Part shown: one piece after another, positions 3,084 to 9,761 of the stretch | Layout: each line of letters begins with the position of its first letter | Numbering within the stretch: position 1 is the stretch's first letter | From: Macrostomum lignano | Taxonomy: Eukaryota | Direction of reading: 5' to 3' | DNA: 51,574 bases | Assembly: GCA_002269645.1 (NCBI GenBank) | Contig: NIVC01004292.1 | Span: forward strand, 1-51,574 | Notes under the pieces: model-generated | Database searches by the model: none | Seen by the model: only the letters and a program-made list of their open reading frames with translations | What the model was told of the DNA's origin: nothing | Translations under genes and position numbers: made by a program

Positions 3084-3428
3084 CTAATTGAAGCGGGGCT
3101 TTTTATTTATAGTGCTGAAAATGTCTGAATTGAGACGCTTCGGAGCCTTTTTTCTTCTTCGTCCGCTACCCCTTTGGGTAACCGTGTCTTTAAAGGCGTC
3201 CTTGGCAGCCTGAACAGAATTGCGCAGGACAGACTCCTTCAAATTGCCTCCTTGCTCGAGGCTATCGTTAACAGTAGTTGCTAGGGCTCTAGTACCATGA
3301 CGGAGAACGTTTTTACCAAAACTCTTTAGAATTGGCAGCGCGAAGCGGGCAATGCTTCCAAACAAACCGTTGCCCCTCTGGGCGCCCGCGAAAACAGGCA
3401 AAGCTCCACCAATCAGAATAGAAGGCAT
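3084..3428 (-). CDS. Small basic virion core/membrane-active protein (conserved Polinton ORF, adenovirus pX/pVI-like), 114 aa
   Basis: PVFAGAQRGNGLFGSIARFALPILK amphipathic N-terminus, second QRGSG motif, basic tail RRRKK. Lies between the minor and major capsid genes as in Polintons. Confidence 0.7.
   Translation of the reverse strand: MPSILIGGALPVFAGAQRGNGLFGSIARFALPILKSFGKNVLRHGTRALATTVNDSLEQGGNLKESVLRNSVQAAKDAFKDTVTQRGSGRRRKKAPKRLNSDIFSTINKKPRFN
3102..3111 (-). promoter_or_regulatory. TATAAATAAA box embedded in the core-protein 3' end
   Basis: 57 bp upstream of major capsid ATG 3054. Confidence 0.6.
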
Positions 3429-3466
3429 GATTAAGCACTAGGATATAGTTTACTGAGGCTGTGCTG

Positions 3467-3476
3467 TTTATTTATA
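3467..3476 (-). promoter_or_regulatory. TATAAATAAA box (also minor capsid stop and AATAAA)
   Basis: 48 bp upstream of ATG 3428. Confidence 0.6.
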
Positions 3477-4611
3477 GCTTCTTTTCGCGGATGTTAACGC
3501 TCAAGACGGTCTTGCCCCTCATTACTTTTGTCATATCCCTGCCCATATCATCGTTAATTTGTACTTCAATAGTTTTGAATGGGTGCTTAACCAGCGGTAG
3601 ATATGCCGGATTGACAAACTCGTAGTACTCGCGACCGCCCTGAACTTTGGGATCCATCGGTATAGCTCCCAACAGAGGAACTTTAACGTCTCCTACAATA
3701 ACAGAATCGACTATGCTCGAATAGATGTACATTGTTTGTATTCCACCGGTTAATTCCATTGATGCGTTTGCGTAGAAATCCGATATACCGAAAAATGGGG
3801 TTGTATAATCATGCTCTGGGAAACCAAGCACGCTGGTCAAGCGCCCCAGCCCAAACATGTAATCCACCGAGCCGATGTAATAACACCTATTCGTAACTTC
3901 GCTGTATCCGAAAAAGTCCTTTCTAGGTGCTGGAGCCGCTATGAGATCTTTGATCCGTTTCCAAATTAAATCGTTGAGTTCCTCCACCAATCTTTTAGGT
4001 GTACTATAGTATCCACCCTGCATAAAATAGATTTGATCAGACGCTGCGCTAGTAACTTGTCTTATTATTGGAGCGTGGTCCATTGACTGTACAGTCGGTT
4101 CCTCAACAACTGCGGTGATGGAGGCTGCACACCCCGCGTGTAATACGAGTTCAGTAGGTAGATCCTCATTAGACTCGAAGCCGGCGACTAGTTTAAACAC
4201 CTTGGGTAGGGCATCCGGGAATTTGATGCCGACGGTGGATTTTGAAGTATTCACAATCATAAAGGCGGTTGGGGATGTTCTTAAAAAGACAATTTTCTTA
4301 TTATCCCCTTCAACGTATCGGATACCGTTTAGAAAGCCGGAAATACATTCTTCAGGGGTTTTCAGACCCGCTGCGAGACAAAGGCTTGCAAACGACGAAG
4401 CCGTCAAGAGGCCCTCCTGTTCGCGAATGGTGATCGGTATAGATTTTTTGAAAGATTCAAATTCTTTGGTAAAGTAGATCCGTTCGAGGCAAACCTCATG
4501 ATTCGGAAAGTGGAGAGTGTCCGGTAAATTAATAAAATAATGAGCCGGATTATTTTCGGGATAGTGCTCGGGGCACGCATTGCTAGGCAGAAAGAGATGC
4601 ATGGTAGCCAT
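3472..4611 (-). CDS. Minor capsid (penton-like, single jelly-roll) protein, 379 aa
   Basis: N-terminal LFLPSNA...YPENNPAHYFINLP...EVCL and C-terminal MYIYSSIVD.VIVGDVKVPLL...YLPL...IEVQINDD.G motifs. Confidence 0.88.
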   Translation of the reverse strand: MATMHLFLPSNACPEHYPENNPAHYFINLPDTLHFPNHEVCLERIYFTKEFESFKKSIPITIREQEGLLTASSFASLCLAAGLKTPEECISGFLNGIRYVEGDNKKIVFLRTSPTAFMIVNTSKSTVGIKFPDALPKVFKLVAGFESNEDLPTELVLHAGCAASITAVVEEPTVQSMDHAPIIRQVTSAASDQIYFMQGGYYSTPKRLVEELNDLIWKRIKDLIAAPAPRKDFFGYSEVTNRCYYIGSVDYMFGLGRLTSVLGFPEHDYTTPFFGISDFYANASMELTGGIQTMYIYSSIVDSVIVGDVKVPLLGAIPMDPKVQGGREYYEFVNPAYLPLVKHPFKTIEVQINDDMGRDMTKVMRGKTVLSVNIREKKL

Positions 4612-4614
4612 GCA

Positions 4615-5693
4615 TTAGTTATTATTACGTTGACGTATATTTATAACTTCATTTACAGGTACAAATGAATTAAAAGTGTCGGGATAACCGCGCCAGCTAA
4701 CGTAATGGTGCGCAACACCATTTATTAACACGTTTCTACGCAAAACTTTATTGATTACAAAACGCTCGGGTCGGGTAGATTTGGACAGTTCATTGTAGTA
4801 AAACCGTCCCTCAATCACTTCACCAGACAAATCAGAAATACGATAAAAATGTGGGGGTCCAGGGCAAACTTTGGATATAATGTACACCTCCTCACTATAC
4901 ATGTCGTACGCCTCCTTGTCGAATGCCCTGCGAGATTTCGAAATTCTCACAAAATCCCCCTTTTTATATACGGGGTCGTCTTTTTGCTGATCCGGGTAGA
5001 GCTTTTCCCACACACGCTTCTGATTGTGGAACCCTACACTTGACGGTTTCATCTCAATAGTAGAATGCGTCGTGTTGTTGTAATTGCCTACAAATTAGGT
5101 AAGTAGTCAACCCAACGCCACGTGTTGTTGTGCTCAAAGTAGCGAGCCAGACGCTTTCGAAGAGTTCTAATCAGCCTCTCGGCCATGTTTGCCTTGTACA
5201 CAGAGTTGGTGCTGTACATTTTAACATTATTGTCTTTTAGTATGCGGCGCATTCGCTGATTATAAAACTCGGTACCCCGATCCACGTGAAGGTAAAGGGG
5301 GCGGGCAGGGAAATCATTCGCCAACATTGACTCAAACGCTGCGGGGGTATCACTCTTTAGTTTAATTGCCCTACAAAAAGCCTGCTTACTAAGCACATCA
5401 ATAATAACTAGTATATATTTATGTCCGTCATTCCAACGTTTGTATCGCGACATGTCCATCAAATCGGCTTGTAGAGTTTCCATGAATCCTCCCGACATTA
5501 CTTTTCCCGTTTTAAATGTCCTGTTGACTCTCCGGTGACGGGTGTAACTCGGTTGGGTTTCTAGCCATTCCCTGGTTTGGCGTCTTGTCAGGTTTGGCGC
5601 CAGACGTTTGGCCTCCTGATAGACACGGGCAGCATTTGAAAAAGCGGCGGCTCCTTGTTCGTAAACTCGACGAAGAGCGGTTAGAGCCCTCAT
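4615..5693 (-). CDS. Retroviral-type (rve) DDE integrase with C-terminal SH3/chromo-like domains, ~359 aa after repairing a 1-bp deletion at ~5093
   Basis: LQADL (D), HVDRGTEF (D) and AERLIRTL (E). The repaired junction reads PNFVGNYNNTTHSTIEMKP. C-terminus has YKKGDFVRIS and chromo-like YVSWRGYPDTFNSFV. Confidence 0.93.
4636..4645 (-). promoter_or_regulatory. TATAAATATA box embedded in the integrase 3' end
   Basis: 34/43 bp upstream of minor capsid ATGs 4611/4602. Confidence 0.55.
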
Positions 5694-5790
5694 TGACAAC
5701 AAGTGTGGATGCACAGCATGAATAGTTGCACGTAATGTCGGCTGGGGAGTTGTCTACACAAAGCTTTGACGCGGCTGCTGCTGCGCCCAT
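5512..5790 (-). CDS. Putative small Cys-rich ORF overprinted on the integrase 5' end, possible N-myristoylation (MGAAAAAS), 92 aa
   Basis: True ATG lies 44 bp downstream of a TATAAATA box and is the first ATG after it. No recognisable homology. Confidence 0.4.
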   Translation of the reverse strand: MGAAAAASKLCVDNSPADITCNYSCCASTLVVNEGSNRSSSSLRTRSRRFFKCCPCLSGGQTSGAKPDKTPNQGMARNPTELHPSPESQQDI

Positions 5791-8566: not shown

Positions 8567-8916
8567 TCCTCTGACTCGTCAGATTCGTCGAGAAAGAAAT
8601 AGTGGAAGAAATTGTCGACTCTATTCTTTTCAACTGCACAAAGTATTTTGTCTGACAGGTGAAATTCGCAGTCTCCTTTTACGTACAGGCGCTTCCCGTC
8701 GATAACTTTGATAGATGCGCCGCCTCCGAGATCGTAATCTGTGCAGCTAGTGCCCAGAAATTTCATTCGATGCCATTGTGCTCGACTAAACACGGCTCCT
8801 GGACAGCTACAGTTTTGACAGTGGATGCGGAAACGCGGCTTGTTTGGGTCCCAATATCCCACTTCCAGCACTGCGTTGTCAACGTGGGTGTACACTATTT
8901 CCGATTGCCAGTACAT
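8563..8916 (-). CDS. Small protein with possible PC4/Sub1-like fold and acidic tail, ~117 aa
   Basis: VLEVGYW...RFRIH...GAVFSRAQWHRMK resembles PC4 GISLNPEQWSQLK. The ATG at 8916 is 39 bp below TATAAATAAA. Confidence 0.4.
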   Translation of the reverse strand: MYWQSEIVYTHVDNAVLEVGYWDPNKPRFRIHCQNCSCPGAVFSRAQWHRMKFLGTSCTDYDLGGGASIKVIDGKRLYVKGDCEFHLSDKILCAVEKNRVDNFFHYFFLDESDESEE

Positions 8917-8945
8917 TTCGATATTGTTGAGAAATACCAATTTTA

Positions 8946-8955
8946 TTTATTTATA
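8946..8955 (-). promoter_or_regulatory. TATAAATAAA box (also Fic stop codon and AATAAA)
   Basis: 39 bp upstream of ATG 8916. Confidence 0.6.
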
Positions 8956-9720
8956 GGCTGCCGTCTGAACAGATTTCCAACCATTCCCTCCACTGTAGAA
9001 CGGTTCTCTCAATTGATAAAAGTAAATACGCCGCTAGGAGCCCCCGGTTGCTGCTGCGCGCTTCGTAAAGACAGTTGAGATATGTGTCTCTATTTGCATA
9101 CGCAAATGATACGGGTTCTGGCAGAATCCGGTTGATCAACTTTGATAATAACAACCTAGCAGTTCTACCATTGCCGTCGCTAAAGGGGTGTATGGTGAGA
9201 AACTTTTCTAGGAAATATGCTCCTGTCACTACTGCATCACGCAAGATTTGTGGCTCTTTTATGTCTCTAGTTAATTTTACCAGCTGCCGTTCAATATTTT
9301 CTGGGCACTGTAATACATACTCGCGCCTGCTGGCTTGGCGTGCTTAATTCTATACGATCCTGCATTCGGGAGCAGTCCTCTACACACGCGTGTGTGAACT
9401 TGTCTAACAAACTCTGTGTCAATTAACCCCCTCGTGTCATTGAGGTGTTTTGCCGCACTCCATAGATTGGCTGTGACCATACAGGACCCGGTTTTTATCG
9501 CTTCTTCTGCTTCCTCCCAAGTCAACGCCACCTCTCTCTCCTCAATGTTTACTTCAGTTACGAATGCCAGCCGGGCTAGATACGTGAATTCTAAGCGCTC
9601 CTTTGCGGTCAATCCCTCGATTCTTTTCCTAGTGTCTGATAACAATCTTTCAATGAGGGGTAATCTGGCGCGCACGCTCTCGTTGCTGAAATAGGGGTTA
9701 TCAGTTATACCCTCTTCCAT
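8951..9720 (-). CDS. Fic (Fido) domain protein, ~256 aa after repairing a 1-bp deletion at 9303-9305
   Basis: Canonical HPFSDGNGRTAR motif, plus FVRQVH and AGSYR. The repaired junction reads YYSAPENIERQLVKL...AYFLEKFLTIHPF. Confidence 0.9.
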
Positions 9721-9751
9721 GTTCTCCATACAGAGGGTTTTGTACACTGCT

Positions 9752-9761
9752 TCTATTTATG
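9752..9761 (-). promoter_or_regulatory. TATA-like box CATAAATAGA upstream of the Fic gene
   Basis: 41 bp upstream of ATG 9720; one-base variant of the element's recurring box. Confidence 0.5.

Follow-up and report, generated by a model that had tools for sequence, protein, structure and literature searches.

Maverick gene expression is essentially undescribed in the literature that we searched: according to papers from 2021, no Maverick virions had yet been observed, and the relevant passages of PMC8097293 and PMC8502044 describe no promoter motif. Partial models come from other DNA viruses. KSHV ORF24 and EBV BcRF1 combine minimal viral core promoters with a virus-encoded TBP fold (PMC12529657), the late motif of beta/gammaherpesviruses being the non-canonical TATTWAA. 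In nested KSHV transcripts with shared 3' ends, an A/T-rich stretch is listed as the promoter of one gene and the poly(A) signal of others, and overlapping TATA-like and AAUAAA signals are tabulated for K4 and K4.1/K4.2, although marked as unmapped (PMC5371899). Virophages and PLVs, which are small integrating DNA viruses, have a short motif before several genes that they share with a helper giant virus, which reads it (10.1101/2022.07.28.501842). Lastly, the midsize linear dsDNA MELD viruses have already been annotated with a TBP-like accessory gene (Starrett et al., PMC8502044 Fig. 5 legend; 10.1101/697771 Fig. 5 and a later figure legend); these genes come from non-animal datasets, and the accompanying text assigns them no function, analyzes none of their residues and draws no connection to promoters.

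The window analyzed here, the whole 51,574-nucleotide stretch of a Macrostomum lignano contig (NIVC01004292.1), contains a virus-like, integrated Maverick/Polinton-type element of ~10.4 kb with all of its genes on the minus strand (Table 1). It resembles animal Mavericks/Polintons (adintoviruses; PMC8097293, PMC8502044) in its inverted repeats and rve integrase and in its presumed ATPase-, protease-, capsid-, PM-, PW-, and PZ-like genes, and it has the single-strand layout of the X. tropicalis Maverick elements. However, it is smaller than the intact vertebrate Mavericks (12.7-24.6 kb), lacks the protein-primed polymerase and carries Fic and TBP-like accessory genes. The inverted repeat arms (1-578 and 9859-10446; ~580 bp) are 95-100% complementary in their main parts, while the 6-bp end motifs listed in PMC8097293 are not unambiguously visible at the right element end. 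The retrovirus-like integrase is encoded by a split gene (Pfam rve, E 4.7e-10). Among the element frames of at least 75 aa, none matched a protein-primed B DNA polymerase, nor is there leftover room for one, and we therefore class the element as Maverick-derived and polymerase-less rather than as an intact member. The ATPase and cysteine protease gave only weak Pfam matches (E 0.015 and 0.062), their motifs having been spotted by eye, and a PDB search with both products returned no useful match. The products that we take to be the jelly-roll major and minor capsid, PM, PW, and PZ proteins had no library matches, and these names are presumed. The copy has decayed and perhaps yields no transcripts. 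No DNA of the element's relatives was found in GTDB scans or in a phage search.

Table 1. The element, its genes in 5' to 3' order, and its box sites; distances run from the first T of the box, and names marked as presumed are assumptions of ours.
Feature	Positions	Strand	Remarks
Maverick/Polinton-type element	1..10447	-	several genes broken; left end cut off at window edge
Fic-domain gene	8951..9729	-	split, frames 9729-9277 + 9343-8951; Pfam Fic E 4.6e-11 in 3' frame
117-aa ORF	8563..8916	-	formerly labelled PC4-like; no family match
171-aa ORF	8051..8566	-	ATGA-coupled to 117-aa ORF; no box
226-aa ORF	7282..7962	-	3' end overlaps TBP-like frame; AATAAA at 7230
TBP-like open frame	6882..7418	-	178 codons between stops; spans both TBP repeats; Pfam TBP E 9.5e-5
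PW/cupiennin-like gene (presumed)	6496..6843	-	5 homologues, 62-70% identity
208-aa gene, PZ-like (presumed, by position)	5826..6452	-	C-terminal Y-K-stop covers next box
rve integrase, chromodomain-like tail	4615..5693	-	split, frames 5693-5088 + 5094-4615
379-aa gene, minor-capsid-like (presumed)	3472..4611	-	open frame; no library match
114-aa basic gene, PM-like (presumed)	3084..3428	-	6 homologues, 65-76% identity
Major-capsid-like gene (presumed)	1773..3054	-	split, frames 3054-2200 + 2183-1773; no library match
Cysteine-protease-like gene	1339..1776	-	ATGA-coupled to capsid gene; no box; weak Pfam C48, E 0.062
Packaging-ATPase-like gene, last gene	675..1304	-	Walker A visible in translation; weak AAA match
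Variant box CATAAATA	9754..9761	-	32 and 41 nt before in-frame Fic-gene ATGs; no AATAAA
TATAAATA + Fic-frame TAA stop + AATAAA	8946..8955	-	39 nt before 117-aa ORF; second AATAAA 8947
Variant box TATATAAG	8006..8013	-	51 nt before 226-aa ORF
TATAAATA + AATAAA, intergenic	6860..6869	-	13 nt after TBP-like stop
TATAAATA in PW-like coding sequence, S-I-N-R codons	6573..6580	-	next ATG 128 nt off
TATAAATA overlapping TAG stop	5826..5834	-	44 nt before 92-aa ORF; no AATAAA
TATAAATA in integrase 3' frame, V-I-N-I	4638..4645	-	no AATAAA
TATAAATA + TAA stop + AATAAA	3467..3476	-	48 nt before PM-like gene
TATAAATA + AATAAA in PM-like tail, T-I-N-K	3102..3111	-	57 nt before major-capsid-like gene
Tenth site TACAAATA + AATAAA, protease tail	1343..1352	-	48 nt before ATPase ATG

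A sequence-only reading of this stretch had proposed that TATAAATA recurs before the genes of the element. All seven copies that it reported were confirmed on the minus (coding) strand (first T at 8955, 6869, 6580, 5834, 4645, 3476, and 3111), as were the variants at 9761 and 8013, whereas the site at 1352 was absent from its list. Within the core of the element (600-9800), TATAAATA is the commonest 8-mer, with seven copies on the coding strand versus none on the opposite strand, and none of 2000 dinucleotide shuffles reached this number (mean 0.18, maximum 3). Likewise, when synonymous codons were shuffled in the 16 open frames, none of 5000 runs (mean 0.73, maximum 4) reached the six octamers observed in coding frames. 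With the peptides fixed, these six embedded octamers together have a probability of 1.9e-7. The consensus TATAWA(W)R, taken in gene orientation, has 10 matches on the coding strand versus 0 on the opposite strand (shuffle mean 1.36). The 41-kb host flank contains four copies of TATAAATA, both strands summed, and a single variant accounts for 7/10 TATAWAWR matches within the element versus 4/17 in the flank.

The reported spacing to gene starts was also reproduced, as an ATG lies 34-57 nt downstream at eight of nine sites, with the exception of 6580, where the following gene begins 128 nt away; the baseline for such an ATG is 33% of positions. Six of the seven exact boxes are located 25-60 nt before one of 13 listed starts (p about 1e-7), an interval that covers 5.1% of the core and was picked after inspecting the sites. 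At 6/10 sites, a pyrimidine is followed by a purine that lies 30 nt past the first T, which is the top of 22 offsets (p 0.018 uncorrected) but is not significant once corrected. At 8013, an initiator-like CCACTCT places its A at this same distance. Box 6869 has in-frame PW-like ATGs 35 and 53 nt downstream, and the starts of PW-like relatives fall nearest to the +53 ATG rather than to the ATGs at +16 to +26, which would be upstream of the start site. Box 4645 is followed at 34 and 43 nt by in-frame ATGs of the 379-aa gene, box 6580 has no ATG from +20 to +128 and is 28 codons short of the frame end, and the box nearest to the integrase ATG (5834) lies 141 nt away, with two other ATGs in between. 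The ATGA coupling described for the genes without a box is real (overlaps 8566-8563 and 1776-1773), but the TBP-like frame is box-less as well.

The further proposal that the boxes double as stop codons and poly(A) signals was overstated, since box, stop, and AATAAA coincide at only two of nine sites (8955 and 3476). A TAA is contained in both of these boxes, whereas the TAG at 5834, counted as a third, only straddles the end of the octamer. AATAAA does overlap 4/7 exact boxes (chance 0.001-0.004), although it begins inside the octamer and extends 2 nt past it, and it overlaps one of the three variant sites (TACAAATA). The three exact boxes without AATAAA weaken a general terminator role. AATAAA is found within about 25 nt of 6/13 gene ends and is modestly enriched in the element (11 versus 5.35 expected, with 46/2000 shuffles reaching 11). 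After the AATAAA sites, no T-rich downstream element is visible (T fraction 0.25-0.40 versus a background of 0.25), and two of them (4752 and 4726) sit within integrase coding sequence. The stop of the ATPase-like last gene overlaps AATAAA (679) with no TATA box, while the first gene (Fic) has a box and no AATAAA.

Relatives retain the peptides encoded by the boxes. Among the PW-like relatives, K-L-S-I-N-R-K, which includes the box-encoded S-I-N-R, is invariant in 6/6 aligned rows, with the frame of this element terminating ~12 residues before the ends of its relatives. Among the PM-like relatives, the box-encoded I-N-K is kept in 6/7 aligned rows with variable residues on either side, and the seventh row ends in T-Y-K, in which Y-K fits the same octamer in another reading frame; one relative (P0014) may be cut off by its contig end. 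Because these peptides are kept, the overlap of promoter and coding sequence looks to be under selection on the DNA. As the conservation is visible via peptides only, it could instead act at the protein level, and motifs neighboring the box-encoded peptides are also invariant.

The TBP-like ORF noted earlier proved genuine, with Foldseek and VIA matches to TBP across residues 17-178 in addition to its Pfam match. Its structure model (pLDDT 57) has the two-repeat saddle fold of TBP, and all 39 listed of the 44 Foldseek matches at E<=0.001 are TBP chains or complexes (TM 0.38-0.43); VIA gave Z 9.8 and rmsd 7.2 over 156 aligned residues. Relatives are known at 63-64% and 36% identity. In yeast TBP numbering (PMC12529657 Table 1; the F99 and N69 positions were placed by eye), two of the four DNA-intercalating phenylalanines are kept (the F116 and F190 equivalents), and the equivalents of F99, F207, P191, N159, T124, and T215 are changed. 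The acids of the loop that binds TFIIB (PMC12529657), E127 and E129, are invariant in 5/5 rows. The herpesvirus mimic, which forms one domain within a 752-residue protein that has five partners, keeps four phenylalanines and lacks the TFIIB-binding acids, whereas the protein here is a bare core. The TBP-like frame has no in-frame AUG before 6917. The PC4-like label of the 117-aa ORF found no match in Pfam, PHROGs, NCBIfam, PDB sequences, or the ESM Atlas. Thus, the self-encoded initiation module envisaged in the sequence-only reading is not supported so far, given a canonical host TATA octamer and a TBP-like frame that has lost half of its phenylalanines and has no AUG. It seems more likely, if weakly so, that the protein would bind TFIIB and modulate host initiation or act as a decoy for it than that the boxes need it as their reader.

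What does stand is a uniform promoter signal laid over the ends of upstream genes, to which enrichment, strand, position, and peptide conservation in relatives all point. We favor, with a probability of roughly 0.68, the reading that the boxes serve a compact Maverick-type DNA virus genome as RNA polymerase II TATA promoters, read by host TBP and written into upstream gene ends, some of them also being poly(A) signals. The canonical TATAWA lies a median of 31 nt before the start site (PMC3807682), and TATAAATA fits it. Since the genes are arranged head to tail almost without spacer, promoters would sit within the final codons, on the stop codon, or in an internal loop of the upstream gene, where host TBP/TFIID would read them in the nucleus. 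Starts ~30 nt past the first T would leave leaders of roughly 5-27 nt, except that the 6580 box would give ~100 nt. The AATAAA that overlaps the box at five sites (8955, 6869, 3476, 3111, and 1352) probably terminates the upstream transcript, which would place its 3' end near the next start site. The PW-like, PZ-like, and integrase genes, having no AATAAA, would yield nested transcripts with a common end further down, and the ATGA-coupled genes without a box may be translated off the upstream mRNA via reinitiation or leaky scanning. Signal overlap in KSHV is occasional and variable, whereas here a single octamer recurs at most junctions.

Could the boxes instead form a dedicated late promoter, read by an element-encoded TBP-like protein that replaces host TBP and recruits TFIIB and polymerase II, much as the TBP mimics of beta- and gammaherpesviruses act at TATT promoters? 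The modeled two-repeat fold, the existence of relatives, and the invariant acidic loop would suit this, as would an octamer more uniform than the host consensus demands. Moreover, 6/7 exact boxes precede the virion/integrase block, the upstream block having one exact box, two variants, and two box-less genes, and the TBP-like (P0002) and PW-like (P0005) relatives share a source, which suggests that this gene pair is conserved. We nevertheless consider it unlikely, as two of the four phenylalanines and the proline, all required in KSHV ORF24 (PMC12529657), are changed here, the motif is canonical, unlike TATTWAA, the TBP-like frame has neither AUG nor box, and the PC4 label is unsupported. Equally doubtful is a polymerase-less animal Maverick lineage whose divergent TBP, with its TFIIB contact kept and its DNA face rebuilt, switches on a uniform TATAAATA before every virion gene. 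Were this true, such a lineage would have arrived by convergence, and with a single protein, at an equivalent of the late pre-initiation complex of herpesviruses, with one 10-mer serving as promoter and poly(A) signal as well as codon or stop, and with transcripts that abut head to tail.

The pattern bound by MEF2 is YTAWWWWTAR, which 6/7 exact boxes match (shuffle mean 0.86), with a pyrimidine before 7/7 boxes (p 0.011) and a purine after 6/7 (p 0.03). MEF2-TBP binds the TATA boxes of immune genes, and each of the ten sites agrees with the MEF2A consensus at 9-11 of its 12 positions (PMC3807682). Compound MEF2-TATA elements that couple expression to a host signal (infection or tissue type) via this complex are still improbable: the match is mostly a consequence of the octamer itself, AATAAA or stop codons account for the purine, and the Drosophila immune consensus CTATAWAAGM (PMC3807682) is matched by 0/10 sites. 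We give even less credence to the boxes being stop/poly(A) signals only, their position before starts reflecting end-to-end gene packing. AATAAA overlaps 5/10 sites and stops 3/10, but 6580, 5834, and 4645 have no AATAAA and the first of these is far from its frame end, the last gene combines stop and AATAAA without a TATA start, and the box of the first gene has nothing upstream to terminate. Chance or codon usage, despite locally A-rich gene ends and the commonness of suitably spaced ATGs, has a negligible probability and was already refuted by both shuffles.

Precedent exists for TATA boxes, for AATAAA over stop codons, for overlapping signals in compact viruses, and for a TBP-like accessory gene, and the real surprise would come only if the viral TBP-like protein had a role in reading the boxes. 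A gene-by-gene promoter map yields exact predictions for start sites, 3' ends, and transcription units. In contrast to the helper-read virophage/PLV motifs, the octamer fits the host nuclear TATA consensus, and the map implies nuclear polymerase II transcription rather than dependence upon a giant virus as helper. In relatives, the motif can further serve as a cheap aid for fixing gene starts and spotting small ORFs. The uniformity of the octamer, with one variant making up 7/10 TATAWAWR matches, is not required by host TBP alone.

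The boxes lie within a single element that spans the window from position 1 to ~10447, is flanked by inverted repeats of ~580 bp, and carries all of its genes on the minus strand. The terminal repeats are near-identical. Library searches of its frames identified an rve integrase (E 4.7e-10) and a Fic domain (E 4.6e-11) as well as weak matches to a C48 protease and an ATPase, and they found no DNA polymerase. The capsid, PM, PW, and PZ names are presumptive ones taken from resemblance and gene order, and the sequence libraries gave no confirming match for them. With genes so named, the element has a full virion-type set, yet it has neither a polymerase nor an obvious gap for one; it may have undergone an internal deletion or be a satellite Maverick that naturally lacks a polymerase. 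Each of the Fic, integrase, and major-capsid-like genes is broken into two frames, and the frame of the PW-like gene stops early. This is a Maverick/Polinton-type element that has decayed and has no polymerase, and its length falls below the 12.7-24.6 kb given for intact vertebrate Mavericks in PMC8097293. Several small frames have no assigned family. The libraries tried gave no convincing match for the 226-aa and 171-aa ORFs, although the basic tail of the former gives the impression that it might be nucleic-acid-binding. The 92-aa ORF had no family match and, judged by eye, is possibly a small myristoylated protein. The 117-aa ORF had been labeled PC4-like in the sequence-only reading, a label that found no support, as every library tried returned zero matches; Atlas searches with the 117-aa and 226-aa ORFs likewise returned no usable match.

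Features of the element and of the host flank (window coordinates)
Feature	Position	Strand	Remarks
Fic-domain accessory gene	8951-9729	minus	split over two frames; 3' frame with intact-looking Fic motif
171-aa ORF	8051-8566	minus	
226-aa ORF	7282-7962	minus	
TBP-like frame	7418-6882	minus	Pfam TBP E 9.5e-5, narrowly short of the curated cut-off
92-aa ORF	5512-5790	minus	starts Met-Gly, at the ATG that follows box 5834 most closely; has a Cys-Cys motif; overlaps integrase 5' end
GC-rich short-period tandem array, long	11660-15800		
Gypsy-type LTR retrotransposon genes	25646-29436	minus	zinc knuckle, protease, RT, RNase H, integrase
ORF with partial MACPF/perforin domain	29654-30574	minus	E 1e-10
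Repeat array	36700-38050		152-bp spacing
Galectin-domain frame	39275-39979	minus	E 2.9e-6
FkbM methyltransferase-domain frame	44821-45399	plus	E 4e-6

Within the core of the element (600-9800), the exact octamer, which is a canonical TATA box, occurs seven times on the coding strand and never on the opposite strand, with first Ts at 8955, 6869, 6580, 5834, 4645, 3476, and 3111, exactly as previously placed. The proposed comparison with shuffled and opposite-strand sequence bore out the enrichment, as 2000 dinucleotide shuffles yielded a mean of 0.18 octamers and none reached seven, while a synonymous-codon shuffle of 16 frames yielded a mean of 0.73 versus the six observed in coding frames (0/5000 reached six). 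These two shuffles rule out chance or codon bias as the origin of the boxes. With the peptides held fixed, the chance of obtaining all six coding-embedded octamers is 1.9e-7. Six of the seven octamers are 25-60 nt upstream of one of 13 listed starts, an interval covering 5.1% of the core (p ~1e-7), although this interval was picked post hoc and the 13 starts include the unverified 92-aa ORF. When the variant boxes at 9761 and 8013 are included, eight of nine sites indeed have an ATG 34-57 nt downstream, as claimed, even though the baseline is already 33%. A tenth site, TACAAATA at 1352, is located 48 nt upstream of the ATPase.

The boxes had also been described as doubling as stop codons and poly(A) signals, three with the stop and four with AATAAA. 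Two octamers do contain the upstream stop codon, but the third merely straddles it, and four octamers run into AATAAA (chance 0.001-0.004), which does not lie wholly inside any of them. The triple role of the boxes is therefore rarer than proposed, since only 8955 and 3476 combine octamer, stop, and AATAAA (2/9 sites), and the notion that each box is also a stop and a poly(A) signal is rejected. Overall, the observation stands with these corrections, while its interpretation as a promoter/terminator code with a self-encoded initiation module is partly supported.

We judged conservation beneath the boxes solely at the level of the relatives' proteins; scans of GTDB genomes with the ATPase and with a PM-like alignment found no DNA of relatives, nor did a tblastn search of phage records with the capsid-like frame. 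Only three readings of the octamer are possible, namely x-Ile-Asn-(A-starting codon), Tyr-Lys-(stop or Tyr), and Leu/Ile/Val-stop, and each of these frames is represented among the six coding-embedded boxes. At box 6580, K-L-S-I-N-R-K is unchanged in 6/6 PW-like rows (the window's own included) that share 62-70% identity. At box 3111, I-N-K is present in six of seven PM-like rows with variable residues on both sides, and the seventh protein has the C-terminus T-Y-K, which corresponds to the second frame of the octamer; the invariant Lys fits the AATAAA extension. Other motifs in the PW-like and PM-like proteins are equally invariant, however, which counts against selection at the DNA level. 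One homologue (P0014) is possibly cut at a contig end. Four of the five PW-like relatives start 7-9 residues ahead of a common R-L-C-S-C motif and the fifth is shorter. The window ATG nearest to these starts is at +53, while those at +16, +22, and +26 would precede a start site at +30.

The layout probably functions as in other DNA viruses of the nucleus, where polymerase II promoters and poly(A) signals are similarly compressed. At 6/10 sites, the base at +30 is a purine preceded by a pyrimidine, the highest count among 22 offsets (p 0.018, uncorrected), which weakly favors a TATA-driven start; in Drosophila, the first T of the TATA box has a median position 31 nt upstream of the start site (PMC3807682). 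Leaders would then be ~5-27 nt long, with a leader of ~100 nt lacking upstream ATGs for box 6580, and transcription would be expected to begin close to 8925, 7983, 6839, 6550, 5804, 4615, 3446, 3081, and 1322. The 3' ends would be expected downstream of the AATAAA copies at 8951, 7230, 6865, 3472, 3107, 1348, and 679. AATAAA occurs within ~25 nt of the gene end in 6/13 genes. The last gene has a stop and AATAAA with no box, whereas the first gene has a box with no AATAAA, indicating that promoter and poly(A) signals can occur apart and are combined at sites that require the two. Cleavage occurs 10-30 nt downstream of AATAAA and thus upstream transcripts would end near the start site of the next gene. 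The genes above boxes 6580, 5834, and 4645 lack AATAAA at their ends and would presumably share a common 3' end further down, while the ATGA-coupled protease-like and 171-aa genes may be translated via reinitiation or leaky scanning. Counting against the poly(A) role, no T-rich element was found downstream of the AATAAA sites, two AATAAA lie within integrase coding sequence, and the overall AATAAA enrichment is modest (11 observed vs 5.35 expected).

As for what reads the boxes, two features favor the bolder view of a dedicated viral reader: a single variant makes up 7/10 of the element's TATAWAWR matches compared with 4/17 in the host flank, and 6/7 exact boxes precede the virion/integrase block. 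Such a reader would explain this pattern, but a strong TATA variant that suits both AATAAA and the codons would do so too. The boxes also resemble MEF2-type sites, but none fits the MEF2-TATA consensus of PMC3807682.

The TBP-like ORF that had been proposed alongside the boxes has a TBP fold over both repeats, but it is not a stand-alone AUG-started gene in this copy, a candidate excluded by the lack of any in-frame AUG before the last 11 codons; it also has no upstream box. Among its PDB sequence matches at E≤10, 18/19 are TBP. A single-sequence model was unusable (pLDDT 42), and we relied instead upon a three-sequence model (pLDDT 57), for which Foldseek returned 44 matches at E≤0.001 across both repeats. 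All 39 among the matches listed are TBP or TBP complexes, with TM values of only 0.38-0.43. VIA aligned 156 residues of the model to TBP (Z 9.8, rmsd 7.2), and the model's top matches in the viral library are viral TBP-like proteins. Relatives are few: identity is 63-64% for two of them and 36% for a third, and there is also a more canonical TBP-like protein. We mapped residues via alignments to the yeast contacts of PMC12529657 Table 1, with F99 placed by eye. Equivalents of F116 and F190 are retained, as is an acidic loop (E127, E129) that is invariant in 5/5 rows, whereas those of F99, F207, P191, N159, T124, and T215 are missing. This pattern is opposite to that of KSHV ORF24, which, according to PMC12529657, requires all four phenylalanines and the proline and lacks the acids. 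As modeled, the frame is an unusual TBP derivative. Its missing AUG could reflect a non-AUG start, splicing, slippage, or decay; starts called in three relatives lie at the fold edge in one and within the fold in two. The frame shares 137 nt with the 226-aa ORF, and this overlap region (7282-7424, minus) contains an A-run as well as words resembling splice donors and acceptors.

The compressed layout, known in other nuclear DNA viruses, has apparently not been reported for Mavericks. We found no study of Maverick or adintovirus TATA promoters in the full-text literature, in which subscription journals and Repbase reports are poorly covered; the Polinton papers examined do not mention TATA, TBP, promoter, or PC4, nor does the consulted part of the adintovirus paper's supplement mention TBP or TATA. 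TBP-like genes have been named before, in figure legends on MELD viruses (PMC8502044; 10.1101/697771). A table in PMC5371899 lists TATA-like and AAUAAA signals that overlap in KSHV, with the case in point marked unmapped, and virophages and PLVs have promoter motifs in common with helper giant viruses, according to 10.1101/2022.07.28.501842. Further comparison literature comprised PMC12220804, PMC11296320, and 10.64898/2026.02.04.703710.

Outside the element, the DNA is that of a eukaryotic host and includes a Gypsy-type retrotransposon. At 20233-20598, imperfect inverted repeats enclose a back-to-back TATAAATA pair (20382-20389 minus, 20392-20399 plus), which looks like a small foldback element.
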